Below the pieces are notes generated by a model. That model had not been told where the DNA came from. It ran no database searches and worked only from the letters and a program-made list of their open reading frames with translations. Positions 17,001 to 51,938 of a DNA stretch of 64,000 nucleotides are shown here, in pieces. How positions within the stretch are numbered: position 1 is the stretch's first letter; every line of letters begins with the position of its first letter. The position numbers were made by a program, and so were the translations under genes. This stretch comes from Yuukianura sp. NJ FZ-2021. Its lineage: Eukaryota. The stretch lies in contig CM102283.1 of the NCBI GenBank assembly GCA_046563655.1, forward strand, positions 8,680,001-8,744,000, read 5' to 3'.

Positions 17001-18348
17001 AACTTTCTCCGGCCCACTTCCGGTCAAGTGCCTTGGAAGTCTCGGCAAAAAGAAAAGTTAGGCTAACATTATATGTTGAAGGGGCTAAGTAATGACACAC
17101 CCAAGTCATAATCATTCCCTTCCCCTGCCTTAGCAGAGGAAGCAGCTCATAAATCAGACTTCCAATTCCTTCCGAATCAGAACAAACGATATCCCTTACT
17201 CAAAGTAACTAGCACGATACACAACTTCCACACACCTTCAACTGCCACTACTACTGCTGACCACAAATAAATCCACAAAAACTAACCTAACAATCCTAAA
17301 AACTAACGTAACAATCCTAACGTAGAGCCAGCTTCAGTTCATTAGAGAAAAACTTTCACCTTCCTTTCACTTTCGGCTCAATAAAAGTCAAGTCCAATAG
17401 AATTCGGAGCCAAAGCAACAGTAGGGTACAGGGCTCCTTGTCTAGAATAATTAGAATGACAAGGGACAAGAGATGTAGGTCAAACGACTAAAAAAAAGAC
17501 TATCGAGACTATAATGTTCCATAGTCATAGTATAAAAGACTAACGAAATCGATTCTCATATTTCAAAGGCAGTACAACTGCTCAAACTGTGTCTTTTGGT
17601 TTATTATCATAATCCGCCAATACATGGACAGAAACAGCAGCAGCATTTTTTTACAACATTTTTTGCGAAAACTGAAAAAGTTTGCTGAATTTCGAAAAAC
17701 TGTAATCCGAAAAGCTCAACATTTATGATATACAAAGAGTTGTGCGGAAAAAGTATTGAGGTCAATGACCTTTTATGACAGTACAAGTTAAATGGCCTGC
17801 AAAATTTTTGCAAAAAAGAGAAACTTTTTTGTTTCGAATAGAGAATTTTTTGGAATAGTTTTCAGAATGTTCGACACGCTTTTCTTTGGCTTTCACTTTT
17901 TCTGGATACCATTTCTGGAGCCATTTTTTGCCTGGAGAGCAAAAGTTAATAAAAACCGGCTGGTGTTGAGTTGAGCGCCGCTGCATGTTTGAATTTGAAA
18001 TTTTGGAAAATGTAAAATTTTTGGAAATTTTGAAATTTCAGGTTCTGGTTTCTGTTGCTGATAGGAGTGACTGTCCTTGGGTTACTGTACAGACTGCTCA
18101 CACTCTTATCCTGGAGAATACGTTATAATCTTCTGAGTTTAAACTACGGCTCCTCAGCGACATCTCCCCACCTTCGCAACATTGTTCATTGTGTCGGCTC
18201 TTCTGATTGGTTCATTTTGTACCAAATTTCTAAAAACATCAACACTTCCCTCTTCGTTGGTCTGGTCAAAGACATTGACGAGAGACTGAACGCACAGAAG
18301 GAACTGCGCAACTGCCGCGGAAGAGCCAGTGGTGGTACGGCTGTATGA
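11031..18348 (+). CDS. inx: Innexin (invertebrate gap-junction/hemichannel protein), 8 exons: 11031-11167, 12716-12852, 15404-15475, 15572-15777, 15957-16023, 16084-16248, 16364-16466, 18042-18348
   Basis: Spliced translation gives DNFVFRLHYK, QYVGEPIVC, YCWIHSTF, HRYYQWV, PRYIWK, FPKVTKC, C-VLSINNINEKIYIFLWFW and DWFILYQ, all typical innexin motifs. All introns are GT-AG and phase-compatible. Confidence 0.96.
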
Positions 18349-19069: not shown

Positions 19070-19407
19070 CTACCCGGGAATTCCGAGAAAGCTGAAACAT
19101 TTACAAGATGTAATATCTGTATTCAAGATGTATCTGTAATTTTGGTTTGACATTGGCTTTGAATAAGTTAAGTACCTGAAAACAGTCAATTCTGGCATGC
19201 CTTTGTCCACACCCCGCTTATATCCTGAACGACATAATGTAAAACGAATGAAATGCAAGCACTGAAAAGAAATATGAATAATTTACAGGTCTTAAATCGT
19301 TCCATACCTAAGTAAAGGATGAGTGGGATATAGCCGTAATGGAAGGTTGTTCCGATAATTCCCGTTACGACGCCAATTCGTTCCTTCATGTCCTTCGGAA
19401 TTGTCAT
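19070..19407 (-). CDS. TOM7: Mitochondrial import receptor subunit TOM7, 3 exons (19407-19308, 19224-19176, ~19092-19070)
   Basis: MTIPKDMKERIGVVTGIIGTTFHYGYIPLILYLG-YKRGVDKGMPELTVF-SFLGIPG matches the FHYG(F/Y)IP..LYLG..G..P Tom7 signature. A further in-frame ATG at 19431 is possible. Confidence 0.92.
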
Positions 19408-20691
19408 CGTTCGTCCCGCCCCTAAATTCATTCTAGCAAGATTAGTTTACGAATATTTTACGAACGTAAATGATTGAATTGAAGGCCTAAATTACCGTTT
19501 CCCTTACCTTTGCTCTTAGCGAAGTCCTCTATGTATTAGAGTCGATAGGACTGGCACAAGTATACCCGAAATGCTACTTTGTGTTACACAGTAGCAAAAC
19601 CGACCAAGTATCAATATCAAAGATCAATTAGAAAGAATTAACGATTGCAAGTGTCAAAATCAAAAAACGTAATGAAGATTCAGTAAATTAAAATTTATCA
19701 CATCGTTTCGTACCAAATAAGATTCGAAATGCAGTTAATCAGTATTGGCGAAACGACGAATTGCGTTTCCCATTTTACGACTTTTCAATAAATCAAAAAA
19801 TACTTGTAAAAGTTAATTATTTTAAAGGTGGTTTTTACCTGATTTGACAAATTTTGGATTGAACAAATAATCCAAAATTTTTAAAAATTAAAAAAACGTG
19901 TCGAAACTAAGCAAGTTTACCTTTACTAACGATAAGATGTTTTAGTTTTGCGTTTTGTACGAACAGAATTGCAGTATCATCAATGTCAATTGAAATGCAA
20001 AATTACAAAATACAAATCAGTTTGAATTTACAATTCACGAGGAGGAGAAATTTAATTTTCGCGGCTATCTTTCTATTGGTCAAATATTTGAAAAACCCGG
20101 CGTTTGAAAGTGGGAGGCCCAAAGCTTGTTTTGTTTTGATTTTGGTTCCTTTCTTATAAAGTTCAACCGGAAATTGCACTTACAAACACCCCCGGGCGTT
20201 AATGTTGCCAAACTCCGTTGAACAGCCGATTCCGATTCCGAATTCAGAGAAAAAAAATGACAAAAGAGCAAACTTCCTGCCACTTTACTTCAAAATTTCA
20301 TTCTTGAGTGAATGAATCACTCTATCCTTCACTTCAACGTCGTCGTCTCGGGTCAACTTGTTTTTGCAGTTTAGATTAGTCATCGTTCTTTTCGTAACAG
20401 GAACTGAGTTACGTTGTGTGACTCATACCGTTTATGCTGTAGTTTACGTAAATTACTTCGTACATCCATTATCTCCGTTCTTGTGAATCAGAAAGATCTG
20501 TGGTGTTTGGTGTCAATTTAGGAAACCGCATTAACGATCGGGTAGGGCTGGGGGTGGGGGTTGACTATTCCTGGTACTGCAGAGACGGAAGATCGTCCTT
20601 CCTAGTAAGGTCAAAGATCAAACATTGAAAAACGAAATGTCGACAGCCTGCAACTAATAATTTTTTTACTATAGGAATACAAATTGGAAAA

Positions 20692-23828: not shown

Positions 23829-26800
23829 CTAGAACCTCTCATTGGTACTAGTAGGTTGCGTCAGTTTATTTTTCTTTCCAAGAATTCCCATAAGTTCTTT
23901 TGGCATGTAGTACGGTTTTTCAGGACTTCCATCGTTGCGTTCACAGTCTTCAACTAAAAAGTAGGAAAAAAGTAAACTAAACTTTCGGTTTTACTCAAAA
24001 ATTTCAATTTTCTGAAAATTTCTTACGGAAACAGAGGAATAGTGTATCCACGGCCATGTCATACACACTGAAAAACAGTGTTGCGATGAAGTACGACCCA
24101 ATGGCCACAACAATCACTGGTGCCAGGTAGAAGTTAAGTGTGTGCATCTGAAACAGAATTTTATGAATATCAAATAATGAAAATATTTTATAAAATTATG
24201 AACTTGTACTTCAAAAAATTTCAAAACTTTTTTTTAGTACCTCGTCGTCAACTTTAAGCGATGCATGCTGGTTGGCAAAAATTTGAAAAGCGACGAGCGT
24301 CATTCCACCGACAATAAAAAGTTTTCCAATGAACAGCAGAAAGTCAGCAGCTTTGTCCAGCACAAACGCTCGAACAACGTTTCTCATGAGCAGCATAAAA
24401 GCGTCTCTGGCGCTTGTGCAGAAGTTCTTTCCGTAAACTGCACACATTATGTAAGCATTCCGGTTGATGAAACGCATGAACTTCTCTAGGCAGTAGAAAA
24501 AGCATTTGCAGCAGCACATGATTCCTTTGACAAAAGGATTCTCTTGGTTGTACTGCTTCAGTTTATGCTCCAAGTATTCCAGGAAGTATCGAATCAGTTT
24601 TACTATGGAGATGACGAGTGAACCAAATGCAAGAGTTCCCAAATGGTAACGAACTGTGCGGAAAAGGCTGCTGGAAAGTGGAAACGTTGGCAAATCGATT
24701 TTCCTGTCCAAGGTCCAGTACCTACCACGTCAAATTAATTTTTAAAAAAATCATTTTTAAAAAATTGTACAAAATTTCTCAAAAATGTTACCATCCCGAG
24801 AATGCTCCCGCCAAAACCATATCTCCAAAGGCACTTATGAAACACAGGGTCCAGATTACGCCGAAGAAGTTATAAAAATGGTACCATCCCACGTGAGTAA
24901 CCTTCCCGTAAAGTGCGAACTGGCAAGTGTTGCTCAAAACACATTCCGATTGGTCCCCACACTCTTTTGCAAAATTCTTCATATGACACCTAAAATTCAA
25001 AAAACATGAAAACAATTTTCAGATTTTTTCAAATTAAAATTTTTTGAAATCTGAGAATTCTTTCTTGCTTACGTAGTTCCTTCTACTAAAAGCTTCGCAG
25101 TATCCCCAATACCGCAAGTACAATTTTGAGCCACGCGGAATACTTCTTCTGAAGCTGAAATTAGAAAGACTCCAACAAGTAAGAAAAACGTAATCACGAC
25201 GACTTGGAGTGCCCAGGGTGCCAGTGGCCAAATCAACGTAAACAGCATATCTCCAACGGCCCTGTCAAAAGTGAAACGTTTCTAACTACTTTTTAGTGCA
25301 AAATCAATTAAACTTAAAACGTTTTTATGTCTCACCTTGCCCCTTGACGAATCAGCGAAACTGCGATTGCCAGTCTGGAACGGAGGAAGATGATAATGAT
25401 GATGTAGATGATGAGACAAATTCCAGTGGCAATGGCAAGGTACAGCCAAGTATCTTTTGAGTTCAGAAGTGAATCAAAATGGTTTGTCAGTTCTTCCTGT
25501 GTGATGAAACGTTCTGCTTGTAAATCTCTGAGCATCTCTGGACCTTCAACAGGTTCTTGACCACGTAAATGAATGTACTTGTCAACGCTAAAGTAGCAAC
25601 CTACAGAATGATACAAGAATTTGTTAGTTGAACTATTATTAAAGTAGGAAAATCACTCTTTCTAAATAACATAATTCCAAATTCCAAAAAGTTAAAAGTT
25701 TAGTAGGAAAATCACTCTTTCTAAATAACATAATTCCAAATTCCAAAAAGTTAAAAGTTTAGTAGGAAAATCACTCTTTCTAAATAACATAATTCCAAAT
25801 TCCAAAAAGTTAAAAGTTTAGTAGGAAAATCACTCTTTCTAAATAACATAATTCCAAATTCCAAAAAGTTAAAAGTTTAGTAGGAAAATCACTCTTTCTA
25901 AATAACATAATTCCAAATTCCAAAAAGTTAAAAGTTTAGTAGGAAAATCACTCTTTCTAAATAACATAATTCCAAATTATAAGAAGTTAAAAGTTTAGTA
26001 GGAAAATCACTCTTTCTAAATAACATAATTCCAAATTCCAAAAAGTTAAAAGTTTAGTAGGAAAATCACTCTTTCTAAATAACATAATTCCAAATTCCAA
26101 AAAGTTAAAAGTTTAGTAGGAAAATCACTCTTTCTAAATAACATAATTCCAAATTCCAAAAAGTTAAAAGTTTAGTAGGAAAATCACTCTTTCTAAATAA
26201 CATAATTCCAAATTCCAAAAAGTTAAAAGTTTAGTAGGAAAATCACTCTTTCTAAATAACATAATTCCAAATTCCAAAAAGTTAAAAGTTTAGTAGGAAA
26301 ATCCTTTTAAGTTTAAAATTGAATTTTTTTTAAAAACTCTGGACTTACTGAATGCTAAGACGATAAACATTCCAACCAATGATGCCCAGACCATAATACA
26401 GGCGAAGATTCTCATCAAGCAAATCCAAATCAGCGACGCAGCGGCACCTCCGCCCAGCAAAAGCACAATTAAGTGCCAAGTAGCACGTAAGTCCTCAAAC
26501 AAGTACTCAACATTCTACAAAGGACAAATATTGGCAATATTACATACTGTTCAAAAACTTGAAAATTTTAACTTTTCTTAATACCTGCTTGGCATTCAAG
26601 AGTTCGATTAACTTAATCAGACCCTCAACAACGTCGTTGAATTTTACAACACTTGAGATCTCCTGCATCGCTTCCTTTTCAATCATTCCCGGAATGCAAC
26701 GTCGCTGAACTGAAAACATAAACGTAAAATTAAAAACCGAATTTCAATTTTCGTTTTTAAAAAAATATCTTAACCCGAGCAGCGGTATAAATTTCCAAAA

Positions 26801-31043: not shown

Positions 31044-31961
31044 ATGGGCGGACGACTCACGAGGTTCATGCACCAAGTTCAGAAAATGAACGAAGTAAGT
31101 TTTCCAAAAAAAAAATCTGCCTTTTTTTTCAAAAAAAATATTTTTTTTTCTAACTTTTTACAAACTAACAAGCTTTCTGTTCCGTAGAGGTACGCCATTG
31201 ACGTCATAAAAGAAATGCAGACAAAACGGTGTCCGATATTCTGGGTTTTAGGCAAGTCCAAAACTTTGTGAAACTTTTCAGACAAAAATTTTCAGATTCA
31301 TTTCGAAATTTTTAAAAACCTAGGTGGACCGTGTTCTGGAAAGACAATGTTGTGTACGCGGATAGCCAGGAGATACAACTTCCATCACATCAACTTGGAC
31401 CAACTTCTGAGAGAAGATTTGACACGAACTGACGAATGGCGTGACATTTGTGAAGCTGATGGAAAAATGATGCTGTTGCCAAGGGAGTACATCATTGGAC
31501 TCATCCAGGAAGAAGTCCAAGTCAATTGCTTCAATTGTCGCGGATTTCTGCTGGAAGGATATCCACGCAGTGTCAGTCAAGCTGAAGAACTCGTCAGAGA
31601 AGTAATCCAACCAAAAAGTCAAAATTTCAATTTTGAAAATTTTATTTTTGAAAATATCATTTTTCAGGTCGGTCCTCCCTGTGCCGTATTTTATTTCCAC
31701 ACGTCGCTTCATACAATGAAAGTGCGACTGAAGCATGAACGACCGTATTTGGCTCATGTTGGTCTCGGAGATGAGGCCAACTATATCAAAATCTACAGTT
31801 TTCTGAAATACTTTCATCCACTACTGGTCCAGTATCGAGACAAAGCAATTCGATTGGACACCGAGGGAACAGTGGACACAATATTTTTAAATCTTGCCTC
31901 CATTGTTCAAAGGATTCTCAAACAAAAGAAAATTCGAGTGCCAAAACGGATTTTGCAATAA
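31044..31961 (+). CDS. Divergent adenylate kinase/NMP kinase-like protein, 4 exons (start 31044, or 30999); includes a GC-AG intron at 31252-31323
   Basis: PIFWVLGGPCSGKT P-loop, YNFHHINLDQLLRE, GFLLEGYPRSVSQAE and IRLDTEGTVDTIF fit the AK1/UMP-CMP kinase fold. Confidence 0.85.
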
Positions 31962-32084
31962 AAAAAAAGTATGCAGACAATTCTTTGTAAAACTGTAAAA
32001 AATGGAACACTTTTCAAAGGAAACTTGATAGAAATTCAAAAATTCCGCAAATTTTTTTCTATTATCGTAAAACATCAAATTGCA

Positions 32085-32098
32085 GTTGCCATGGCAAC
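32085..32098. promoter_or_regulatory. Perfect palindromic X-box (RFX binding site)
   Basis: GTTGCCATGGCAAC, ending ~190 bp before the ATG at 32286. Confidence 0.75.
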
Positions 32099-32285
32099 GG
32101 CAAAATGGTTTTCGAATTTCAGCGTCATTTGTTGCTTTGTTTTCAACTGTGGATTTGCATGTCTCGGGAAAATTTTTGACTCCTCAAGAATCATCGCATC
32201 GCTGATTTCAGATTTTGGTCGAATTTGACCTTGACGCAGATTATTTTTGAAAAGTTTTTGAAATTTTGAATCAATTGGAATCAAA

Positions 32286-33925
32286 ATGTGCTGCAGTCAC
32301 AACAACTGTTGTTGCTTGTGTGCCTTCATGTACACTGTGTTCTACAGTTGTCTCCATTTCCTCAAGGGATTGGCCCTCTTACTGCCACTTCTAGTAAGCA
32401 CTGCAAATTCAAAATTTTGATTTCAAACTCTCAAAATTTCAAATTTTGATTTCAGATTCATGAAATTCTGTTGTTCTCTATCAACACCTCGATCTGTGTA
32501 GGACTGACAGCGATTTTGTCCTTCTTCCATGAAATTTGTTGGTATCGCCCGCTGCCCGCTGATGTGCAGGCAGTTTTGGCACTCGTTTTTCTGACAGCAT
32601 TCGGTGAAGCTTCGACGCTCATGCTCCGATCATCGTACATCCTCAAGTACTACAAGAAACAACTACGCCAGTATCCATGGATTACACGAACCGTAAATTT
32701 AAACCTCCAAAAAGTGAAAAATTTTGAAATTTTTTGAAATTTTTGCAAATTTTTTTCCCAGGTCACTTCTGTCTTTGGCCTGTTGACTGTTTCTGTGGCA
32801 GTGGCTCACTTGTACTTTGGCTACAAAAGTGCCCATCCTTCGTACTACATGGGATCGTACATCAGTGGTGACCTCCGGGTCAACGGTGACCTCGACAAGG
32901 TCGTTGACCCCGAGACGCTAAATTCCACTTCCACGTTTGTCGTGCTAATTAGTCTGTCGTATCTGACTTACGACCTTCCGCGTGTCACTGACTGGATGAT
33001 TTACCGCTTCCGAATGAACCCGATCGACCTTTATGTCCAGCTCGGCTCAAAACTTTATGTTGGCTACTTCGTAAGTTCCAAGAAAACTCAAAATTTTTGA
33101 AAAACTGAACTTTTTTTTTTCAAAATTTTTACTTTTTTCAGTTCATGCAGATCCTGCTTCTGGTTATCTATGCTGTACCGCTCCTTCTGCTGGCGTTTGC
33201 TTTGCACTTTGTAGAGTTATCTCCAGTCTACGTTTTTCCAGTGCTCGTTTTGAATGGGATTGGAATCGGCATTAACGTGGCGCACCTTGAAAACATTTAC
33301 ATTTCGCGCTACGGTCACATGCAACGTCCAAATTTTCCTTACGAAGTATGTCAAAGTCACTCTTTTCCTCAAAATTTCAAAATTTTGTTCAAAATTTGCT
33401 ATGAAGCTGACTTGGGGAATTGAAATTTTGAAATTTTAGAACTGCCTGGCAACGCGCGTGAATTTGTTCCAGTACATCTTGGTTCCATCAGTTGCAGTTG
33501 CTTACTATGGCACTGGACCAATCCGCACGCTCCATCCAGAAGGCCAATTCTATCTGTACACTCTACTGATCTCATTGGCTGCTCTCCAGGCAACCAAGTG
33601 CATTTTTACCAACTACTACAAGCATGCTGTCAACCAAATTCGGCGCATGCTCAGAGACAACCGTCTGCGCATGTTCCTCCAAGACCTGCAAGAAGCCCAG
33701 GCAAATGCAGACGAAGCAGAAATTGTTCAAATTGAGGATACTCCGGAAGAATGTGCTGCTGAGTTGGACAAGAATGCGAACAATCCAGTGCCTAAAGATG
33801 CTGCTAAGCAGCAATCAGCCAATCAGATGCTGGATCAAATTTTAGAAAATGTTCAAACAGAACAGCCCCCTCCAGAATCTGGAGGCGATCTGGCCAAACC
33901 GGAGGAGAAACCGTTCCAACCTTAA
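32286..33925 (+). CDS. Uncharacterised multi-pass membrane protein A (~447 aa, ~9 hydrophobic segments, acidic C-tail); exons 32286-32393, 32456-32692, 32762-33070, 33142-33345, 33440-33925
   Basis: Four phase-0 GT-AG introns give a continuous ORF. Cys-rich N-terminus MCCSHNNCCCLC and many hydrophobic stretches; no family recognised. Confidence 0.8.
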
Positions 33926-34269
33926 AAAGTTACAAAAAAAAAAAAAAGAAAGCAAATCAACGTATATAAGTTCTTTCAAAATTCAACTTTTACTGAAATT
34001 CCTTAAGGACGTGTGTTATGCGTCTAATAAACAATAATCGTTAAATTTAGTAACCACGATAACGGAGCTTGTGCAGTTAGTAAAAGATGCAGACATCGAC
34101 AAAAAGAAACACCCTTAAGTGAGTGGTGAAAAAGGATCAGTGGAAAGATGATCAAAAAAAGTATGCACTTTGAAACAAACAAACTACTGACACAAGTTCG
34201 GTTGCCGTCGTCTGGGTTTTAAAATAACTTTTCCGAGACAGTGACATTGAAATTGAAAAATGGCGTGGC

Positions 34270-34517
34270 TCAGCGTAGGAAGGTCGTACAATGACCCACA
34301 ATATATCAAACTTTAGGAAAAGACTTGATCTAGTACCCTGTCGGAGAAAATTACACAATTTTAGTTCTAACTGTGAAAAAAATTGACTCAAACATTCCAC
34401 CCCCATATTTACATAGATAGAACTAAAATTTTGTAATTTTCTCCGACAGGGTACTAGATCAAGTCTTTTCCTAAAGTTTGATATATTGTTGGTCATTGTA
34501 CGACCTTCCTACGCTGA
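34270..34517. repeat. Long inverted repeat (foldback): 100-bp arms 34270-34369 and 34418-34517, 48-bp spacer
   Basis: TCAGCGTAGGAAGGTCGTACAATGACC...TTAGTTCTA is the reverse complement of TAGAACTAA...CCTTCCTACGCTGA with ~2 mismatches. Weaker complementarity extends ~25 bp outward. Confidence 0.93.
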
Positions 34518-34678
34518 TCCAGACCATTTTCCATTTGATGAGTTACAGCCGCATTTTGACCCCCCGTTTCCAGGGTGTTCGCACACCTTAAAAAACGAAA
34601 CTTTTTATAAGAGAGAAGAAATAAATTCAATGGTTCAAAAAATTTCTTGCTGCATTTCAAGTTTTTTGAAATTGAAAT

Positions 34679-34692
34679 GGTGCTATGGCAAC
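34679..34692. promoter_or_regulatory. X-box (RFX site) upstream of membrane protein B
   Basis: GGTGCTATGGCAAC, ~190 bp before the ATG at 34883, the same spacing as for paralog A. Confidence 0.6.
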
Positions 34693-34882
34693 CAAGATGC
34701 AGAATTTTGAGGCATTTTCCAAATTTGCAATTCGAAAACAATGTTGAGCAGTGCAGCAGCAGCAGCGTTTCAGTTTTAGTTCAACTGCAGCAGTCGTCGA
34801 AGGAAGTCGACGTTTTTTTTCTTAGTTTAGAATTTGAAAAATCTTGAAATTTTTACATTTTTTGAACAAATTCGATTCCAAA

Positions 34883-37363
34883 ATGGCGAAAAAATCTAAA
34901 GAGAGACCAAAACGAAAAGATAAAGGAGCTCGGCTTGCCGATTCTGAAATGTCGTACCCACCACCTCAAGAACGACCACCAAAGGGTACCAGCCGGGTAC
35001 CGAAAAATAACAGTCAGGTTCCGAAAAATACCAGTGAAGTACCGAAATATACCAGTCAGGTACCGAAAGATACAAACCGGGTACCAGAGGATACCAATGA
35101 GGTACCGACGGGTACCAGTCAGCAGCAAGTACCGAAAGATACGACTCCGGTACCAGAAGACCAGCAGGCGACGAAAGATGAAAAACAGAAGGAGGGTTGT
35201 GGGAGCCATCTTTTGGGAGTGCTCATTCTATTCCCGCTTCTGGTACGCTTTGTACCAAAAACGAAACAAAAATTTTGAACATGCGCAGATTTCGGTTTTA
35301 ACTGCGAATTTTATAGATCTTCCACTTCCTTTGCTTCATTGTCATCTTAGCACTGGGCATCGGTGTCGGAATTTTGTCCGCCGTCATCCACGAGATTTTG
35401 TGGGACACAAAATTTGCAGCATTTTGGCAAACGTATGTCAAACTTAACAATTTTTCAAATTCAACTTCAACTTCAAAATTTTAAAAATCTAGTTTTTGAA
35501 AACTTAAAAATCGTTTTTTAGATATGTGACTCTCGTCAGCATCTACATTTGTGTCGAAATTTTCTTCCGTGTTGGATTTCACACGTCAATGAACAAATGG
35601 ATGAGTCGGCAGCAGGACAAGCATCGTATCGAACTCTATTACGTAAAACTGTCAAAATTAAAAAAAAACTTTTCAATTTTTTCAAAATAACGTTGTTTTT
35701 TTTTTTAGATTCCGCGTGGATTGTACGCCTTGGGCTACATGGCGGCAATCTGTCTCCTCTACTACGCTTACCAAGGATCTCACACGGTGGTGGTTACTAG
35801 AAATACTGGCAGTATCACCACAGTTGCTCCGAATGTCGCCAATACTTCAGCCGGCAACTCTACGACCACTACCACGACCACCACGACTACGACCACTGCC
35901 AAACCACCAGGTCGGAATTCGACTTTTGATGGAGAAGGTGACGATGCCAATGCTTGGAAGACGAATCCGTTGAGTCTGAGTCCAACTGAAGACTACTTCC
36001 ACTATTCCATGATCTTCTTCATCTCATTGTGTTACATGATGTACACAATCTCAAAAGAAAATGACTGGATCACCCATCGACGAACAGTGATGGAACAGAA
36101 TCATCCAGATCCCGTCCTGCGCGGAGGAGTCACGACATTCATCCTCTTTCTTGTAAGTCTGCACATAATGTTCAAGTAGCATTGGATTTCCAAATTTCAA
36201 AGTTTGAAAACTTAGTTGAAAGTTTTTGAATTTTTGAACTTGAGGCTACTCATGCCGTGATGACGTTCATCTACATCCTGCCGCTCATCGGAACCGTTTT
36301 CCTGTGTCGGCAATTTCGGTTGGGTCCGATCTTGACATTTTCTGCCGGTAACTTGAATCTGCATTCAAAACCAATTTTGATTAGTTGTTAAAAAGTCTCA
36401 AAAGTTGCAACTTTTAAGTTGAAATTTACGAAATTAGGGAATTCTTTATGAAATTTTTCAATTTTTAGGAATTTTCATGGCCATCTTGGTTGGACTTGGA
36501 GCGTTGTATATCGAACGTCGTCGTCCGTTTCCGACTAAACCAATGCGTCCACCAGGATTTGCTTTTGAGGTAGCCAGAAACTTCTGAAATTCATAAAAAT
36601 CTAAATTTATTAACAAAAAAAATAATTTTTTTTTCAAAATTTCAGAATCACCTTCGAATTCGACTTGCTTTTCTCCAGCTCGGTTTACTTCCTTTGGCAG
36701 CGTAAGGCTAAACAGGCAAAAAAAAACTTTGCGACAAACGCAAGTTTGCGACTTTTTTAAATTCTGAATTTTTTTTAAATTCTTACCGCCAATGTTCATT
36801 TCAGCGGACGATACTTCGATGCCAATCGAGCGATTGTGCTGGATTCCGAAAACGACGATTTCCTCATGTTCGTCGGAGAAGTTTCAATTGGAGTCGTCCA
36901 GGTTCTGAAGATCTTCGGTAACGATTTGTTCATGCTCAAGGCCAAATACTGTTCAGCAAAGGACAAAGAATCCAAAGTGCCTGGAAAAGTGCTGGTAGAA
37001 GATGGAATGGAGTTTCCTTATCCTTATGTTGGAAGTGAAAGTTTGATCAGCCTCACCCAAAGTACTCAGACGCTTAACGGCGAAGATGCCCCATCTGAAA
37101 TTGACATGAAAGATTCATACTCAAACTTCGAACCAGACGATGAACTGGACCAATCGATTAGTAGTCAGTACTTACCCGAAGCAGAGTCGAAACCAATCGT
37201 CGCTCCTGCCAAACCATCCGAAAGTGAGCCAGTAGTTGACGCTGAAAGTCGTCCAGCAGTTAATGCTGCTGAATCTCAAAGTAGTTCAGTAGTTGATGCT
37301 GAATCTGAATCTACCATTGCACCACCGGTACCAGCAGATGATGATGCTGCTGACGACGAATAA
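34883..37363 (+). CDS. Uncharacterised multi-pass membrane protein B, paralog of A, 8 exons, with N-terminal 7-aa repeats, a poly-Thr loop and an acidic tail
   Basis: Exons approx. 34883-35242, 35317-35432, 35522-35642, 35709-36152, 36245-36347, 36469-36569, 36646-36701 and 36805-37363 splice in frame via GT-AG. Aligns by eye to protein A. Confidence 0.8.
34985..35165 (+). repeat. Coding 21-bp tandem repeat (VP[K/E]xT[S/N]x units, ~8 copies) in exon 1 of protein B
   Basis: Recurrent GGTACC/GTACCGAAA units; translation VPKNNSQ VPKNTSE VPKYTSQ VPKDTNR VPEDTNE VPTGTSQ. Confidence 0.85.
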
Positions 37364-37756
37364 CCTCGCCTTATCTCTCAAAAGTAGAATACTGGCTACT
37401 GCCAGTACATCAAGCACTATTATCCTAAATTCTAAAACCTAAGCACAAGTATCGCTAATCACAGTTTATTCTCAAAATTCTCGAAACAGAAAACCTTCAG
37501 TTAGGGTTACAATTCCTGGAAAAACTTATCCCTGCCCTAACTTATTAATAAACCTGCGAACTTAAAAACGAAATGAAGTTTAAAATTATACGAGAAATTA
37601 ATAGAAGTTTAGACTTTGAAAACGTTACAAAAACGTTAAGCTTAACCTGTTAAATAATCTGCGTAAAGTGTAGTAAGTTAAACTTCTAGACGTGGATCTG
37701 AGGCATTAGTGGTAAAATGTAGTCCGTGTAGAGCTAAAGTTGTAAGGTGTAAGTTT

Positions 37757-38664: not shown

Positions 38665-40062
38665 TTAGATGAGGAAATGCTTAATTTGGATTTCCTCTCC
38701 CACATCGGCGTAGTCGCCTTCAAATCGTCCTTTACGGAAATGGCCAAAGTTGATTGGACGGTATTTGCATGGATTGGCGTCCGAAATACAGGGATCCAGT
38801 GGCGTCACGTCGCAACTGTAGGCCGGTGTGTAGAAAAATGGAGCGCTGTATCGTTCATGTTCATGATTAACCAGTACACGATGTACTGGAGCCTTGTACA
38901 AACTGTAAAAAAAAAACACTCAAAGATGAGCACAGATAAATATTTTGGAGGTTTAGATAATCGGTTCACCCATTGGACCAGACTTGGACCATGTCTCCAA
39001 TGTTTACAACAAATGAATCTGCATACCAAAAAAATAAGGAAAAAAAATAAGTGAATGTCTAGAGAAAATATTGTGAAAATTAAAAAGTTGTCACCTTGTA
39101 GTGGATAAACGTCATAAAATACTCCATCTCTCTCCACTTGTAGCGAGGTCACCTCCATGTCCTGCTCAGTGTCCATGACAGAAAAAAAAAAGAATTAATT
39201 AAACTAAGAATTAATTAAAGTATGTATTAATTAATTAGACGTATAATTTAAATCACCTGCCACAAAATTGTAAGTGCCGATGGATCGGCGTGGGGCCCGA
39301 CTCCTAACTGTGCCTTAGGATTTGGACATGGTGGATAGTAGTTGACGCGCATAAAGCATGCGTCCTTGCATCCCTCAAACTCCTTCCGCAGCGATTTAGG
39401 ATCCGCTCCAAGCGATTCAAAAATGGCTGACATCAACTTCTCAGAAATTGAAAACATACGCTGCAAAAAAAAAATGAAATAACAATAATTTTAGTATTTC
39501 GCAAACAATTAATATCAATTTCTAATTGCTTGTACTAATTAGTTTTATTAATCTTACATCAAAGTACTGGAGCATAGTTTTTTTCATCTGAGGCATCGAT
39601 GTTGGCCATTGATTCTCTCCATCGACATCTAAGTGTCGATTTTCTTTTGAAATCAGTTCCGAACCAAAGTCGTACACTTCTTTCCAATCCAGCTTCTGCT
39701 TTGTAAATTCAGCGTCGGAGTATCCTCGAAAATTGTTCTAAAAAAACAAAACCAGTAATTTGAAAACTTTCTTGAAGGTCAATTGAAAACAACATCTGTA
39801 TTCTGTTTACCTGTGTTCGAGCGACTGTATTCTTGAATTCCTTTGGTTTACCGAAAAACTCTCTGCTAACTTTTTGAAAATTTTGAATTTCTTGGTCACC
39901 AATTTGGTGACCAACGACGTAGAAGAAACCCCATTCCTTACATGCTGTTCCAATCGCTTCAACGGTATTCTTCACATCAACTGCATCGCTGCCTTCGATT
40001 AACAACGGAGTGATGTTGATTGTCGGTATGTTCAAAGTCGACTTTTCAAATTTACTGGGCAT
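38665..40062 (-). CDS. 2-oxoglutarate/Fe(II)-dependent dioxygenase of the DIOX_N + 2OG-FeII_Oxy (IPNS/plant-type) superfamily, 6 exons
   Basis: IPTINI...ACKEWGFFYVVGH (DIOX_N), DWKEVYDFG, MRVNYYPPCP, HAD (HxD), VVNIGDMVQVWSNG, APVHRV (distal His) and RYSAPFF (RxS). Confidence 0.95.
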
Positions 40063-40448
40063 GATGTTAAATTTTAAATTTTCGAAAAACGAAAGTGTAA
40101 GTCAAGATGCGTCTGGTTCTCTATAACTGTAACAAAAGTCAATGATGAAATCCGAAAAACTTTAACGCATATCCTAACTCATGTTATTTCAAGACGTTAT
40201 CAAAAAGTTCAAGTTCATAAGAAATTATGAGGGCAAAGGTCAAGTGAAGCCCTTTGGCCCAGATAATTTCGTGAAATGACTGTTTTGACTCAAAGATTTC
40301 CATAAAAAAAACACTTTTTAGAAAAAACCATTGAAAACGAAAGTTAATTCTGGGAAATAATAGTAGCTTGTACTTATGATCTCGATTCGGAGTAGAAGTG
40401 TGTGTTAACTTATATGCTTAGTATATCACAGATTTATATAAGTAAAAA

Positions 40449-43400
40449 TTAGGCAATTAACAACGCAGACAGGTTCAAAATGTCCACTGAACCCACTTTC
40501 ACACGGTAGAAATGGAAACCCTGTGGCACACGATACCGATTTTGAGCCTGCAACAAAAAATGTTAAGTAAATTAAGTAATTCAGCAATTAATTGAGTAGT
40601 TAATTAACTTACACGTCGCGCGACACAGTACTCCTTCTCCTGGACGATACCCAAAAATCCTTCCACAGCTTTGTCTAAAAAACCAAAACTTAATAAATAA
40701 CGAAAGCTACTTTATAATTGGATATCTGTCTGTCTGTCCGTCTGTCTGTTGTTTTGTTGTCAAGTGCTAATTGAGCATTAGTTACCTGAGCTATTGATTA
40801 ATTTAAGGCAATCTGTGTGTAAGAAATGGACACTCTTGGTATTCAAGTAGAGTATGTAGCAAGTCAGTTTCTCATTCCAGTAGATGAAAACAGTTTCTCC
40901 TGGTTTACAACCTTGGATCGAAATTCGATCCTTTTGTACCAATTTGGAAGCAGCGTTGACCTAATCCACAAACAAGTTACAAATTACAAAATCACTGAAA
41001 ACTTGAATTTAGTTTTAAAATCTTTGTGAACTTACGATTCTTTGCGAGGGCATGAGCAATTCACTCAAATCCCTAACGATATCCGAGCTAAGCATTGTTG
41101 TTGCATCTATTGCACTTGTGTCCAGTCCATAAACACTTTTAGTATTGCCAGCACTTTGTTCCTCGTCAGCTTCAATTACACTTCCTCTCTGGCCCCCTTC
41201 TGACATGTTTCTGTTTCTGGACGTTCCTGGAGAGCTTACTGACGGTGGTCCAGCTTCCAGCTTTCGTAAAATTTTGCGTACTGAATAAGGGCTGAGCCCG
41301 TCAGGAACAACTCGTTGGAGTGAGTCCACAACTCGGTTCAATTCGGCCAGCAGTTCATCAGTTTTCGGAAGTCGGTCATTGGGATCCATTGTACGCTGCA
41401 AAACAAGATTTTTAGAACAAACTTTTCAAAAATCTAGAAGTTACAATTTTAATTTTTAATTTTTACCTCAATTGAGTCCACTGGGCTCTTTTGTTCAATT
41501 GACGACATAAACTTGAATCGAGCTTTCATCCCTTCAACTTCTGCTTTTGATTTGTCCTTGACGATTTTCAGTGCCTCATCCTTCTCTTGGCTAAATTGTT
41601 GCCTCAACTCTTCAATTTGTTTTTCATGGTCAGATTTTAGTAGTCGCAGAACTTCTGCGTTACTTTCCACAACCGAGGTCAACTTGTTTTCAGTTTCAAC
41701 TTGAAGGCTTTCCATACTTTGTTCTAAGAGATGCACTCTCTGTTTAAGCGATTCCAATTCATTTGTCCTGGCATCAACCAAACTTCGCTGATTTTCAACC
41801 TCCCGCTCTTTCTCTTCGACTTGGCCATGGAGTTTCTGGATTTCAGCATCTTTTTCTGTCAGTACTTTTGCTAGTTCTTCTTCTTTAGCAGTTAGTTCTG
41901 ATTGGGTTTTCTCAACTTCCAGTTTCAGTTGGACATTTTCCATTTCCAAGTTGCTTCTGGTGCTTTCATCACTTCGTGTGGACGTTGGAAGGTCAAGGGT
42001 GAAGTCTTCATCGCATTGTACCCAAGGGAATCTGGCTTTTAATTTCTCGACATCTTCCATGAGAACCTAATGAATCAAAAATCAAAGTGGTATTGCAGTA
42101 CACATCACAATTCACAAAAAAACATAACTAATTAACGATTAACGTACTTCTGGTAAATGTGAATCAAATGGTTCAGGCGGTAGATTAGCAAAAGGTTTTG
42201 GAAAGTCGTCTAATCCTTGGAATAAACCGCGAAGAAAGTGGCGTTCAAATTTTTGTCCAAATTCACGACGTCGCTGAAGCTCCGTTTTGTAAATCTGGTC
42301 CATCCTAGTCGCTAATTCATTCGCCCACTAAAAATCAATCAAAATCAAAATTTTAGTACACTATTAGATGAGTTTTATGAAAAATGTTTGTGTATTTGAT
42401 TTTACCTCGAGAAATGTTGATGTAAACTGCTTGCGGCGTACGACTTCTACAACAGCTTGACAATAGATTTGCGGTGCATTGTGAATTTGAGACATGATTT
42501 CAATTTGAAACTTAATCCGCTTGAGTCTTTCGATGTACATTGTCAATTTGTTACTCGCGTCCACCAGCGACTTCTGAACGTACATTACCCATTTGAGTCT
42601 AGCGTTGAGGTTGACGCTCAGTTCCTCCTTTGCTTTTTGACATCGACGACGAATGTCATCCAGTTGAGAATGATTTTTTAGCATAACGAGAAGTTGGTGT
42701 TGGTGGGATTGACAGAGATCGGGAAGAATCGAGGAGTCCTTCAAATCACTGGCACGGTTCTGATTCTGAATGAATGCTTGTAGAAGCTCATATTGATCCT
42801 GGACTAGTTTCCGAGCTTCGATCAGCAATTGGTCGAGACCAAACAGACGTTCCTCCAGGCCCTTGATTTCCTTCATGGAAGCCTGACTTCCTTTGTCCAC
42901 GACAGCAGTGGCTTCCCATTCCAGCGTTTCGATCACTTTTGGTTCCAGGCTTTCCAGGGCCTTTCGACAAGTAAGGGCGAATTGTCGTAGAGGATTTGTG
43001 GTGTCTTTGGATTCTATCCAACCAAAAAGCGTTTGTGTCTGGCCTTCGATGAGACTAGGAACAACGTCTACCCCCTCAAGAACTTTCAAATCGTCTTCAA
43101 ATCTAAAATTTCAAAAAAAAAGTTTCAGTTTTCAAAACTGAATAAAATTGGATATTTTAGCAGTACTCACCCGTCAAGCAGTTTCAGTTGGTCGTCCTTC
43201 TCAGCATTGTGAACGTTGTACGTAACTTGGAACAGATCAATCCTTTTCTTGAACGAGATGATAATGTCTTCCAAGTTTCCAACCACGGCAGCCCAACCTT
43301 GATGTTGAAGATGTTGGTCATGAGTCAGTTGCTCACATTTGCGTGACATCTCCTTGGCCACGTCATGTAACTGCTGAGCAAGTTGGCAGCGACTGACCAC

Positions 43401-43922: not shown

Positions 43923-44689
43923 TTTGGAGGCCTTCAGGACTCCCCCCGACTATTACAAATGGCAACCTCAACCACCATATGCACAGCACCTACAAAATTA
44001 ATCAACATTCAATTAATTCATTCGACTAATTACGCTGAACGTTTCGAATTCGAGGCACAGCGTCAGATCGCTACGTTTGTCTCCAGGTAATTCTAAGCCT
44101 AAAACTGAAAAAATGTGTCAAACTTGGTTTAGATATGACCTGTTAAGTGCAGAACTCGTCAGTATGAGGTCCCGAAATCAGCGTAGCTCAATGCTCAATC
44201 CTAATTGATGATTTAATTGCGTAAAACGTATTTACGTCGAATAATAATAGGATGAGAAGGACTCTTTGTCCTTTGTATTTTTTTGTTTATGAAATAACAA
44301 AGGTGAGCATAGGAGACTTTCCTTGTTCGTAAACAGCTGATGTGAATTCAAAGATTTTTTGCGTTGAAAATACTGGCGGTTGCACAAACGGTTCCTCCGA
44401 TGACTCACGTAACATCTCTGTAAACTTTGATTTACGATTTCCATAAATCAGCGATTTTGTGACGATTACTGATTGTCCTTTTTTGTCATTTCAGGCCTTT
44501 AACAGCAATCAGCTGAGACTGGAGTTTCAGATATTCGAGAAAGGTTGCTGATCTTACTTGAGTAAGTAGACACTTCAATTTGATTTATATGTCATTACAT
44601 TACATTAGATTGCCGGATGGCGGACACTGATTGCTTTTGTTTTTGACAGGAAAGTTTGCGGTTACGATTCTGGAAGGGCTGTCAACACA

Positions 44690-47600
44690 ATGGACACGTC
44701 AGATGACTTCGATACTCCGCTTGGACTGGGATGTGCTCTGGAAATGTTCTCAGAGAAAACCGAAGTTTTTGAACTCCTACATGCCATGCCAAACGTTTTC
44801 CAGAACAATACGAACAATGAGAAGAACTACGAAACGTTTCTGATGATCCTGGATCGTTACCAAGAGCAGCCACATCTCCTGGATCCCCAAATGGAAGACA
44901 TGATCAACACTTGTCTTGATATTTTCCGCTCTTCAACATCTCCAGCGTTACTGCCGTTGAAGCACCTTAGCCTCAAGTACCTCAAGCACCTTTTCAAGGT
45001 ACGTGGAAGGAAGGAAGTCGTGAAGCGGTTGCCACATGAAATCTCAGAGCTGGTTCCGGTACTTACGTTTCTGGAATCTTTGAATTTGGAAGATGCATCA
45101 ATCTGGGAAAGCGGTTACGTTCTTGTCCTTTGGTTGTCAATATTAGTCATGAATCCATTTAGCCTTAAACTTCTGGACGCGTCAAGTGATGGACTGTCTG
45201 TAAATGAAAGGTTGGTAAACATTCTCCATCTAAAGACACATTCAAAATGAATGATTCAATTCACGATTTGAGTTTACAGTAATCTTTGTGTTTTGATAGA
45301 CTAATGGCCCTTTGCTACAAAGCGAGTACCGTAAAGAATTCGATTGCTGAAGCTTCAACAGAACTGCTTACGAACTTCCTTACTCGTCCGGATATGCAAG
45401 TAATTTATATGGGACAGTTCGTGACATGGGCCAGAGCCAGACTAGGTCCAAGTACTACCGATGCTGGCGTCCGAGTTGGTGCCTTTCGTTCGCTCTGTGG
45501 ACTTTTCAAGCATGCAAAGAGAGAAGAAATACTGACCTATGGCACTGATGTGCTCAACGATCTTGCGAGTTCATCATTCGATCGAGCCGATACTGTCATT
45601 CGGAAGTGGGGAACGAAGTTGTTGCAACGGATAGGACAAATATTTCTCAAAAGTCGAGTGAGTCTTAAATTATTAATCAAATTCTTAGATTAATGATTCA
45701 CTAATACTGTCACTGTTTTATGTTTTCAGCTTGCAGCATGGCGGTATCAACGCGGCAATCGATCACTGTTGCAAAATCTTCAAGGATGTGCTGGAGACAC
45801 AAGTCATAAAGGAGGAGGAGCCGAAAATGAGATGATTTCCAGAGAAGATCCGAATGCTTACGAAGAACTTCGTGAATACTCGACAGAAATTGAGAAAATC
45901 TTGGATCTGCTTTTGAATTTATTGAAAGACAAGGACACCGTAGTTCGATGGTCAGCGGCCAAGGGAATTGGGAGAGTCACAAACCGACTTCCGAAGGATT
46001 ATGGTGACGAAGTGGTGGAATCTGTACTTGGAAGTTTTAGTGAACGAGAGGAATCTGGAACGTGGCATGGAGGTTGCTTGGCTTTAGCAGAGTTAGCTCG
46101 TCGCGGTCTGCTACTTCCCGCTAGACTTCCTGCAACGATTACTGTTATCCAGCGAGCACTTATCTACGATGAGGTAAGTTTATCAATTATGATTAATGAA
46201 TATTTAGTTTCTAAAGCATTGCAATTGGAAGTATTTTGTGACTTTTGTTTCAGATCAAAGGAAATTTTGCCGTTGGAAGTCATGTGAGAGACGCTGCTTG
46301 TTACGTTTTTTGGGCTTTTGCTCGTGCTTTTGAACCCACTGTGATAGCACCTTATGTCACACAATTAGCGCCTTCACTTGTTGTGACAATGCTGTTCGAT
46401 CGGGAGGTAAGTCACACTAAATACTAACAATGGAAAGCATTAACAGAAACGTTTTTTCAAAATCTTAGATAAACTGTCGCCGAGCTGCTTCTGCCGCATT
46501 CCAAGAAAATGTTGGCCGTCAAGGAAACTTTCCGCATGGAATCGACATTGTTGCTCTGACTGATTTTTATACAATCGGAGTCAAGACGAATTCCTTCACC
46601 AACGTTGCTGTTCGAGTAGCAGAGTTTTCTGAATACATTCGTCCTATGATCGATCACCTGATTGCTCTCAAGTTCAATCACGTTGATCCACAAATTCGAG
46701 AACTGACTGCACAAAGTCTAGGAAAACTTGCGATATTGGATTCAGAGTACGTCCAGAAAATGTTAGCTGAAAAACTGATTCCAGTTGCAACTGCCATTCA
46801 CACTCCAACTTCTCATGGTGCTATTCTCTCCATTTGCCAAATCATGACAGCTTTATCCAAGGTAGGAAAACTGCAATTGGCAGCATCCGATACTTCGGCT
46901 TTGAGGAATTTGGTTGTGAAGCTACTGAACAAGCAGTTCAAGGAACTACCTTCTGGGCATATTCTGCTACGGGAGGCTGTTTCGTTGTTTATCAAAACTT
47001 GTGCTGAAACGAGGTAAGCTGTAACTAATACTGGCCAGTATTTTTAGTTAGAAGTAATTGAATTGGTTGATTAATTGAATAACTAGGTTTCCGGTGCACG
47101 AAGACAAGGAAATACTGACTGTTTGGCACGCAGTACTGGAAGATCATATTTCGTCAGTGTCGGGTGCATTGAGACAGAAGACGGCCGAAGCTTTTCCAGC
47201 GTTTCTCCAAGAATATTACTACAGCGATCCGTTTAAGCGCGGAGAAATCAAGCGAATGATTGACATTTTCACACAGAATCTCACTTCTCCAGTAATCCAC
47301 ACCCGACTGGGTTACATTCTCTTGTTCGGTAATAAGCAAAGTACTAAATTTTGAAATTCCCGCCAAAAAATTATTTGAATTTTTTTTTTCTGTAGCGCAT
47401 ATTCCAACTCACATTCTACGGGACTCGTTCCATGCAACTATTACTAAACTCTGTAAATGTACTGGAGTCATGTCAACGTTGGATAAAGACTGGGCAGATA
47501 CAAGAAAAGAAGCAGTGGCTGCTCTGGGCTCAATTTTCTCCAATGGAATACTGCCTGGTCCAGAAAACGAAGTTGATTGGCGCGACGGTGTACCGCTGAA

Positions 47601-48731
47601 TGCTGTTGACACGGATCTCGTTTTCACTGCTCTCAAAACTGCCATGTCAGATTACACAACGGACAAAAGAGGCGACATTGGATCATGGGTTCGGGAAGCA
47701 GCCATGGACACTATCAAAATACTGCTTGTTGGTCTCCAATCAGCTGGAGTCGAAGCGAAGAAAGTACTGACAGAAGAAGTTGTCACGACCTTTGTCAGTC
47801 TCATTCTGAAACAATGTGTTGAAAAGATAGACAACGTTCGAGTACATGCTGCTAAAGTGTTCACGGAAATTGTTCATTCTAATCCACCAATCGGCGACAT
47901 TCCACATCGCGATCAAATTCTGGAACTTTTTTCAGAAGAATTTTGTTCTACCGTGAATTGGCGAGCTCCGACCGAATGCTTCCCGAAGTTTCTCCAGCTT
48001 TTGAAACTTCCTGAATTCACTCATGGAATTCTGTCTGGCCTTGTCCTGGGTGGCAGTCGGATTCAAGGCGGCGGAACTGTTGCACTGATGGACTATGTTA
48101 ACGGATTTCCAGAAGATGAGAAACAGGCAGAGGTCACAAGGATTTCTTGGATGCTATTGCAAATTTTCCGGGAAAATTCAAAAGTTGAGAGAGTGACGAT
48201 ACCACTGATGGAGTTTTTGACTCAACTCTTGCAAGCTGGGTTCTTCGTGCCTCTGATTTCGGAAGAACCGGCAGAATTCGGAGCAGAGTTGGTCAAGTGT
48301 GTGAAAACGGAAACTTTGAATTCCAATAGAATGGAAAAAGTGCTTGGGGGTATCGAGCTACTGACGGAGTTGCTGCAGGGGTCACCAAGTCTTGTAAAAT
48401 TGTAAGTTAATCTTGAAAATTTTGAATTTTGGTATCAAATTGTCTAATTAATTGTTAATTGACTAATTTCAGAGCCCTTGGTCGATTGGTCATCTACTTG
48501 TGTCACTCTTACCCTAGAGTGAGGACTCAAACTGCGACGAAACTCTACGAAGCCCTGATTACTTACGATACGCTGGAAAGCGTAATCAGCGACATGCCTG
48601 CAGCGATGGCTCTTCTTAGTGAAACGCTGTGGACTGGAACGCTGGAAGAATTGAAGCCCATTCGGAATGTCCTTTGTACCTACTTCAACGTCCCATGCCC
48701 AGTGCCTATTTCAAAAAAGTTACCCGCCTAA
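44690..48731 (+). CDS. TBCD: Tubulin-specific chaperone D, ~9 exons
   Basis: [88 protein letters not shown] and DYTTDKRGDIGSWVREAAM. Confidence 0.97.
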
Positions 48732-48962: not shown

Positions 48963-49997
48963 TCAAAAAGCGTTTGAAATCATGGCATTTTTGTTAACCG
49001 GCATCCAGAAAATTTTTTTCCTCGTTTTCGTGACCACAGGTTTTATGGGCCTGAAATTCCTATTGATTGACTTCCCGTTGCTGTCCTGGATTTGCCTAAA
49101 AGCGCTGACTTGCTTTTGGGACACGGGCATGCGCTGGGTAAAGACGCTGAAAAACATAAAATTTTGAACAAAAAATTCATAATTTTGAAATTTTTTGGTT
49201 TACCTCCACAGAATCTGCTCACTGCACGGTGGCTGTACGGGAAAAACAATATATTTTGGTAAACAAAAAGTTTTTTGTGGAAAGTTTTTGTTTAATTTTT
49301 TAAAATTTTCATTTTTTTTTTAGATTGTGCAACTCACTGTTGTGAGAGACCCTGCATAGCGGAACACGTCGAACACTTTGGGCAGAAATTTTCCAAGATT
49401 GAGTTGCGTCGTGACCGGAATCGGCTGAGTCGTGACACTCTGAACTTGCGGAAGCATTGAAACTATTGGCTTCAGTACTTTTGAATCTACCGACGACATG
49501 CCATACAGTATCCCGAGTACACCCATTCCACCATTTCCATTGTCCTGTTCATGCACAATATGCATTTCCAGTGGAAATCGCTTTGATTTCACCAAATGCT
49601 CAGAGCCCCAGTGAAAATGGAGTTGCAAGAAGTTGTACGTGCCCTTCCAGCCATTCCCTTCAACTTGCAACTTGGGTGCTGTTTGGCCACTGGGGGGCGG
49701 AGCAAGTGACAACATGACAGTATGCCCGTTGTTCTCAATTTGGAAAGTTTGATTTTGGTAGTAACTTTTGGAAAATGTCAATTTTTTGCCTGGTTTCACT
49801 TTGACTGTACTATTTGGTAGGATGTTGACAGGAGACTGCGCAGTACCGAACTTACACTTGCCTTTCCAGTACTTTGGACCGCAGTTCCCTTCGTAGCACC
49901 AATCGTCACCAAGGATATTGGGTGGAAATGTGCTTGCCAGTATTATAAAAGTAGAAATAATTAGTTTTGAACACACTTTTGGTACAGTGAAGCTCAT
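48963..49997 (-). CDS. Secreted alpha-carbonic anhydrase, 3 exons (49997-49338, 49232-49204, 49146-48963)
   Basis: Signal peptide, WCY..CGP..W..C..G..QSPVNI, NNGHT, zinc ligands QLHFHWG and EMHIVH, YAGSLTT-PPCSE, NFRP. Confidence 0.95.
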
Positions 49998-51938
49998 TTT
50001 AACGTGAGGAATGTCGATTTCGGCAACAAAATCAGTCTAAAATCAAATTTGAAACATTGTCATTGGAAAAAATGAGTTTGTTTGGTTAAATTTGAGTTTT
50101 TGAAGTTCCGTTGTTCTGAATTGCTTTGCTTGTCCACTTCCGCTTCAGTTAGTTTTTTCCCAATTACTTTTTGATTTTTTTTTTTTTTTTACAAATTTTG
50201 AAAACCAATTATTTTTTGAAGTTCCTGGAACATGCAAGCATGAAAACACGAGCCGACGTCATCAAGTACTAAACTGGCTGGTGGAACCAGTGAAATCATG
50301 ACAGTGTGAAATCTGTTCAATTTCAAAATTTTGAAGTTTGGTATTACTTTTTGGAAAACGTAAAATTTCTTCGTGCTTTGTGTCACTTTGATAATGTTCT
50401 TTGGCAAAATGTTAACGGGAGACTGAATTGTTCCAAATTTACAATTTCCTTTCCAATTTCATGGTCCGAAGTTCCCCTCATAACACAACACTCTTCTCCA
50501 AAGGTCAGCAAGGGCATCAGAGCAAGAAAAAGTAAGTTTCCAAATTTTTGAATAAAGAAAGTAACATTTTTGTACTATTTCAAATTTCAAAATCACGTCT
50601 GCAAGCTTTCGTCCTCTGTATTCAAGAAAATACAGAGAGTTCCAAAACAGAATTAAAAAAAAAGACGAAACTTGTTAGTAACTTCCGCATTGCTATCTAA
50701 CCAATTAATCTTTCGAAAAATCTTAATTCGTTCGTGTTTAAATTCTCTTTTTTTTGAAAATCTAGACAAAATTGTTACTGACTACACCAAACTAAATTTC
50801 TTTATCACAAAAGCTTTTGCAGCAGGCATTGACGCCGCGGAGGAAATTTTAAAAAAAAGTGTTTTTTTTTTTCTAAAAGTACCGATAGCTGAAATATCAT
50901 CTTTAGCCAAAAAAAAATTGTGAAAACTTGCAGAATTATTGCAAATCGACAAATTCCATCAGTGTTTTGTACTTACTTCTCACGTTTCATGTGCTTTCTC
51001 TTTTGTTTGTTTTACTTTTTAGCATTCTAGGAGGCGTGTGAAATTGACTAGAGTACCAAGGTTTCAAAATTTCAGAAAACAATCACAAACGGTTGTCACG
51101 AAACACGTAATTTCGAAACTTAGATTTTAACAATGGAACGCCGTTTCATGGTCAAATGGGGGAGGAAACTCCAGCACTTTTAAATCTATTGGAATAAGCT
51201 GCATTCCATTCATTCCATTTTTGCTTTCATTTTCATTTTTTTTTTCGTTTTCTGAGAAAACTCAAATTTTCATATACTTTCTCCACTTATAGTCTATGTG
51301 TTTAGAGTTAGTTCCACAAAAAATGACAGGGTTGGTTACATGCAAAGAAGTGATTTGGGTCCGTCCTTAACGCTCTACTTTCTTGCTTTTCAAAATTTTG
51401 TGTTCATGCGACGACGCCTTTCAAAAAAACAGCGAAGCACTAAACCGTTGTGGTGGAAAATTTATAAAATTTTATGAAAAATTGTTGTTTTGCAGGAGGC
51501 TATAAAATTCTTGTTCAAACTTCAAAAACGTCAATAGAAGGAGAGTGAAAGTCGGAATTTTGGGTCTGAATCACTTCCGGTGGGACGACAGGAACAAAAT
51601 GCTGAGACTTTTGAAATCAGATTATTCGGAAATGTTGAAATGTACTACGGTGTGCTCAGTTCATGCGATTCAACATTTTCGTGTTCAACTATAATAGGTT
51701 TTCTATTCTGGTGCTGTACTTAAGTGGAAACAATGAAATAAATGTCTTGGCACAAAATCAACAAAGGTTACCGTTTTCTAAAACCTTTGCGTTTTAGAGC
51801 ATAATACTAAGGAAAATGAAAAAGAGAAAGTCAGTCTCCCGGTGAAAGTCAAACGAATAAGTCAACCTGTCAAAATTCCTTTGAAACACTTGAAAAAGGC
51901 GGGAATTTGCGGTTTAATATTTCCCACCACAACTCAAA

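Follow-up and report, generated by a model that had tools for sequence, protein, structure and literature searches.

Two neighbouring genes in a 64,000-nt stretch of Yuukianura sp. NJ FZ-2021 DNA (contig CM102283.1, positions 8,680,001 to 8,744,000 of the forward strand) encode multi-pass membrane proteins of a family that, by sequence comparison, is so far unnamed, and each of them is preceded at nearly the same distance by an X-box, the inverted repeat that is bound by RFX-type factors. We refer to the whole 64,000-nt stretch as the window, count positions from its first letter, and call the two genes A and B. With a probability of a little under 60%, in our estimate, A and B are functional genes from an ancient duplication that encode multi-pass membrane glycoproteins, are direct RFX targets and are expressed in ciliated cells, with their products in the ciliary or periciliary membrane.

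The gene models were built by reading positions 31900-37600 together with the three forward frames. Both genes lie on the + strand. The spliced model of gene A comprises five exons (32286-32393, 32456-32692, 32762-33070, 33142-33345 and 33440-33925) and encodes 447 amino acids (aa), that of gene B comprises eight exons (34883-35242, 35317-35432, 35522-35642, 35709-36152, 36245-36347, 36469-36569, 36646-36701 and 36805-37363) and encodes 619 aa. Every intron in the two genes is bounded by GT and AG, the introns are short (62-104 bases), and most acceptors read TTTYAG. These splice signals look nematode-like rather than arthropod-like. The arthropod and sperm setting of the sequence-only reading of this DNA is not supported. 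All four gene A introns are in phase 0. Four intron positions are common to A and B, each of them in phase 0 (after A36/B120, A115/B199, A218/B347 and A286/B415), exactly as that reading had it, and gene B has three extra introns with no counterpart in gene A. The pairwise alignment, on which the paralogy had been made to depend, is significant (blastp E value 5e-16, 23% identity over 373 aligned aa), and all sequence blocks quoted earlier for a block-by-block match are present and aligned. As judged from these sequence comparisons, A and B are real paralogues. No further paralogue was detected within the 64-kb window, and the opposite-strand and overlapping open reading frames (ORFs) of the A/B region gave no Pfam match.

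An orthologous pair came to light when the A-type exon-2 alignment was used to scan contigs from metagenomes. The contig recovered (L001, 6682 bases) stems from a distant relative and carries an A-type gene (ATG at 1136, five exons, one GC donor) followed by a B-type gene (ATG at 3474, seven exons) that starts 672 bases past the A-type stop. Gene order and orientation are the same as in the window. The A-type orthologues share 38% identity (E 9e-97) and the B-type orthologues 56% (E 0), while comparisons between the types, over the four genes, gave E values between 5e-16 and 4e-34. The four phase-0 introns are common to all four genes, and six introns are common to gene B and the B-type gene of L001. 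Since L001 holds both types, with the four common introns, the comparison places the duplication before the split from the L001 organism and indicates that the tandem arrangement has been kept; the earlier proposal of an old duplicate pair is thereby supported. A Cys-rich N-terminus starting with MCC is conserved in the A type, and its presence in the L001 orthologue supports the start assigned to gene A.

Some structural differences were observed within the family. The fourth A-type intron of L001 appears to start with GC instead of GT (at 2194), at the position common to all four genes. The intron at 36702-36804 of gene B is missing from the B-type gene of L001, which points to an intron gained or lost during the evolution of the family. 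The first exon of gene B contains a coding 21-base tandem repeat (34987-35122, 6.5 copies) that yields a Pro/Lys-rich N-terminal stretch of about 100 aa; the B-type orthologue of L001 has no such repeat and its exon 1 encodes only 17 aa. Introns of both A and B (e.g., 32405-32468 and 32718-32755) are rich in short AAATTTTGAAA-like tandem units, and AAATTTTGAAA-like words turn up again just upstream of both start codons.

The X-box of gene A (32085-32098, GTTGCCATGGCAAC) is a perfect 14-base palindrome with an AT spacer, and it is the sole exact match in the window both to GTNRCC-N2-RGYAAC and to the palindrome itself. The X-box of gene B (34679-34692, GGTGCTATGGCAAC, that is GGTGCT-AT-GGCAAC) likewise has an AT spacer, and its 3′ half is free of mismatches. 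Relative to the ATG, the first and last bases lie at -201 and -188 for gene A and at -204 and -191 for gene B; the sequence-only reading had given about 190 bp for both. We then asked how rare such sites are. Within 64 kb, and considering both strands, only two sites have two or fewer mismatches to GTTGCCATGGCAAC, and these are the A and B X-boxes. The number expected in 64 kb is 0.20. None of 100 dinucleotide-preserving shuffles reached two such sites, and block shuffles contained 0.117 sites on average, with 1 of 300 reaching two. A looser criterion, allowing two mismatches to the degenerate consensus, gives about one site per kb, so that only the stricter palindrome measure carries weight. 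Apart from the motif, the promoters of A and B show no alignment to each other. The motif and its distance to the start codon are thus what was kept, and with surroundings that cannot be aligned the X-box pair is not simply the outcome of recent copying.

Conservation of the X-box across species was judged from one orthologous locus, that on L001. Upstream of the B-type gene the sequence GTTACCAGGGGTAAC (3246-3260) forms a perfect 15-base X-box, located 228 bases before the ATG. It is the contig's one match to GTNRCC-N3-RGYAAC, for which 0.01 matches are expected per contig. The accessible part of a preprint on these motifs describes the X-box as GTNRCC N1-3 RGYAAC, with AT as the most frequent spacer (bioRxiv 10.1101/2021.02.03.429678). 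Scored against this consensus, the gene A site and the L001 B-type site have 0 mismatches and the gene B site has 2, both in the 5′ half; the gene B site retains the five key positions named in the accessible part of the same preprint.

The X-boxes of A and B each contain an ATG (32092 and 34685). Reading from it, ahead of the main start, one meets a stop after 46 and 20 codons, respectively. We considered whether an upstream exon begins at this ATG and rejected the idea in view of these early stops, the lack of an ATG in the X-box of L001 and the conserved MCC start. Being absent from the L001 X-box, the ATG probably just comes along with the motif. Sites of the forkhead-like or GACGC type close to the X-boxes were also considered, but they are too short to judge.

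Direct targets of the RFX factor DAF-19 in C. elegans offer a measure for these sites; most of their X-boxes lie within 250 bp of the start codon. Validated X-boxes of this species have 14 or 15 bp, as stated in the accessible text of PMC3245922. According to the available part of PMC1794439, they are preferentially positioned at -50 to -200 from the ATG, and 24 of 25 tested genes with a cross-species conserved X-box were expressed in ciliated neurons. The sites described here start at -201 and -204 in the window and at -228 on L001. It is this position preference, together with the high rate of expression in ciliated neurons, that leads us to read A and B as direct RFX targets in ciliated cells. 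Furthermore, a canonical X-box with AT spacer near the ATG is presented as a signature of the ciliogenic programme in the portion of bioRxiv 10.1101/2021.02.03.429678 that is accessible. On this view each of the two genes would be controlled by the proximal X-box in front of it. An RFX-type factor, in nematodes DAF-19, would occupy the inverted repeat as a dimer, some 200 bases upstream of the ATG, and would switch on A and B in ciliated cells, where the proteins may serve in the ciliary or periciliary membrane. That RFX binds these sites, that A and B are expressed in ciliated cells and that their products reach the cilium is inferred from these comparisons.

The X-boxes could also be real RFX sites of genes whose products act outside the cilium, for instance in secretion, in membrane traffic or in the neuronal membranes of RFX-expressing cells. 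The rarity of the motif and the site on L001 fit this equally well, and the protein sequences hold nothing that points to cilia and have no Pfam or PDB relative. In C. elegans, the one gene of the 25 that was expressed in the pharynx only encodes an uncharacterised integral membrane protein, as far as the accessible text of PMC1794439 goes. The ciliated-neuron expression of the remaining 24, reported in the same text, and the ciliogenic signature of a canonical AT-spacer X-box near the ATG (bioRxiv 10.1101/2021.02.03.429678, accessible part) argue against a role outside the cilium, which we therefore regard as rather improbable.

Several points weigh against the view that A and B are RFX-controlled ciliary genes. 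RFX factors have non-ciliary targets as well, and applying success rates from C. elegans to the organism analysed here is an extrapolation. The X-box of gene B departs from the palindrome at two positions, both of them in the 5′ half. On L001, no convincing X-box precedes the A-type gene in the 1135 upstream bases present on the contig; the strongest candidate there (-176) matches perfectly in its 3′ half but poorly in its 5′ half, and with about one such site per kb it does not rise above background. In each of the two species one paralogue has a perfect X-box, while the site of the other is imperfect (gene B in the window) or none is convincing (A-type gene of L001). The claim that both copies had kept RFX control consequently holds, at the level of motifs, within the window but not across species. 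Likewise, conservation of the X-box in orthologous promoters applies to the B type (0 mismatches, -228) but not to the A type with its background-level candidate.

The imperfect motif of gene B and the A-type gene of L001 without a convincing site would also fit palindromes that are not functional RFX sites at all, but occur by chance or serve another factor, with A and B being ordinary lineage-specific membrane proteins. Chance would have to account for two rare sites at equal distance before two paralogues and, in addition, for an independent perfect site at similar distance before a distant B-type orthologue, where 0.01 were expected per contig. Simple recent copying does not agree with promoter surroundings that cannot be aligned. 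We give little credence to this explanation, and retain direct RFX control in ciliated cells as the preferred reading of the two sites.

With regard to the proteins, a Kyte-Doolittle scan revealed about 8-9 hydrophobic segments in A and B. The multi-pass character claimed earlier is supported by this result, but a firm count of nine membrane passes is not. The C-terminal tails are acidic in both proteins, as had been noticed before, with a net charge of -9 in A and -23 in B, and the family proteins have basic loops beside these acidic tails. N-glycosylation sequons are present in the long loop of A, of B and of the L001 B-type protein. The B type is much better conserved than the A type, and this includes parts of the sequon-bearing loop. 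No internal 4+4 repeat was detected between the protein halves (hhalign probability 4%), and we rejected such an architecture. The predicted topology has roughly 8 passes. Both termini would be cytoplasmic, and the outer loop that joins passes 3 and 4 would be glycosylated. The Cys-rich N-terminus of the A type is likely to be palmitoylated, and A may pair with B.

In order to find known relatives, similarity searches were performed with single exons (34-203 aa), which lowers the sensitivity of profile methods. In Pfam-A, none of 8 window exons, none of 6 L001 exons and not the B-type fragment P0002 reached the gathering cut-off when searched singly. Profile searches of PDB with four exon alignments gave no significant match (best E values 2.2, 0.41, 0.98 and 0.25). 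When 1.84 billion representative proteins were scanned by HMMER with a 79-position exon-2 profile, 4 matches were returned. Of these, P0001 is an A-type fragment on a single contig, 51% identical to exon 2 of gene A, and P0002 is a B-type fragment, also on a single contig and named only 'hypothetical protein', that reads through the position of the B exon 2/3 intron. The other two, P0003 and P0004, were judged to be repeat-protein artefacts after reading. Word-based protein searches, which miss relatives below about 40-50% identity, gave no match with gene A exon 3 and none with a profile of the last exon; a B exon-4 profile retrieved one fragment only (P0005, 49% identical). A feature-based atlas search with B exon 4 yielded no usable match, and one with the tubulin cofactor D exon gave no hint as to the taxon. 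A further candidate locus, L002, was spurious (guanine-plus-cytosine content 65%, 20 residues matched).

The only multi-pass family to appear at all was Serinc (Pfam PF03348), with exon 4 of gene B (E 0.035, 13.5 bits versus a cut-off of 24). We rejected this candidate because the match is sub-threshold, lies over a Thr-rich low-complexity loop and is absent from the corresponding exon of the L001 orthologue. The earlier statement that no family could be assigned thus still stands after Pfam, PDB, HMMER and word-based searches, none of which gave a named relative. On this evidence the A/B protein family is so far unnamed, with unannotated fragments as its only further matches.

Independently of how the motifs are interpreted, A and B might belong to a known family of transporters, channels or receptors from which they have diverged very far. 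Every profile search is weakened when the queries are single exons (34-203 aa), word-based searches are blind below about 40-50% identity, and the profile used for the scan of all proteins had only 79 positions. Against this, none of the 14 family exons, nor P0002, came up to the Pfam gathering score, the best PDB profile E value over the four exon alignments was 0.25, the proteins lack a detectable internal repeat, and the atlas search was without a usable match. We consider such a hidden affiliation unlikely, although with an appreciable chance of being correct. A more far-reaching idea, which we consider clearly unlikely, is that A and B are two subunit types of an undescribed, lineage-restricted ciliary membrane complex, either a receptor, a channel or a transporter of sensory cilia. 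The two genes would have stood in tandem since before the species split, both originally under direct RFX control, and the strongly conserved outer loop of the B type would bind a ligand or partner.

The region between A and B contains a foldback element (34001-34585) with inverted arms of 129 bases (34251-34379 and 34408-34536) that are 92% complementary. Its contig depth exceeds that of the flanks by a factor of about 100-150, which marks it as a high-copy repeat. The X-box of gene B lies about 95 bases outside this high-copy element, which ends near 34585. Contigs of the sequencing runs X1 and X5 join position 34000 to 34586, with one side of the X1 joint having only 26 bases; this weakly suggests that copies of the locus without the foldback insertion exist.

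Neighbouring genes take their names from Pfam matches of individual ORFs, scanned in sets of 22, 43 and 150 from the window. An adenylate-kinase-like gene on the + strand (31046-31961, Pfam ADK, E 2.4e-14) ends 124 bases before the X-box of gene A, and it has a Gly after the apparent start codon. This neighbour was not found beside the gene pair on L001, where the flanks gave a single sub-threshold Pfam match (Vps5, 17.7 bits versus a cut-off of 27). Further genes of the window encode an innexin (10890-18348), Tom7 (19189-19446), a choline-transporter-like protein (24211-25018), a 2OG-Fe(II) oxygenase (39251-40101), an ATG17-like protein (42364-43110), tubulin cofactor D (44609-48405), a carbonic anhydrase (49320-50036), an arrestin-domain protein (53927-54637) and a rhodopsin-type receptor (58761-60646). 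Additional window ORFs matched widespread families only. The innexin marks the organism as an invertebrate, but no family specific to one phylum came up, and the borderline match to Srv (22.7 bits versus a cut-off of 21) is no proof of a nematode.

Searching for X-box genes has been a fruitful way to discover ciliary and ciliopathy genes, and to our knowledge almost all known X-box genes encode conserved machinery. The A/B family turns up solely in environmental or newly sequenced DNA that lacks annotation, and current annotation misses it entirely. Kept as an X-box pair, it would be a candidate for sensory equipment of cilia that is specific to the lineage, and the pair would illustrate the retention or loss of RFX control in duplicated genes. 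We regard A and B as new candidate members of the known class of X-box genes. Like the xbx genes of C. elegans, the direct targets of DAF-19/RFX, they have an inverted-repeat X-box with an AT spacer no more than about 250 bases away from the start codon, and a counterpart of the X-box precedes an orthologue in another species. In contrast to those genes, A and B encode proteins without a named relative, and one of the two orthologous promoters has no clear site. In gene arrangement and control, with no sequence similarity claimed, the closest parallel that we considered is human TMEM138-TMEM216, two adjacent genes for ciliary membrane proteins that are co-regulated by RFX4 according to the accessible text of PMC3631122. 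Both pairs consist of head-to-tail neighbours that encode small to medium multi-pass proteins and have intergenic RFX-type control, which for A and B is predicted from the motifs. While TMEM138 and TMEM216 are non-homologous genes that share one intergenic site, A and B are paralogues and each of them has a site of its own.

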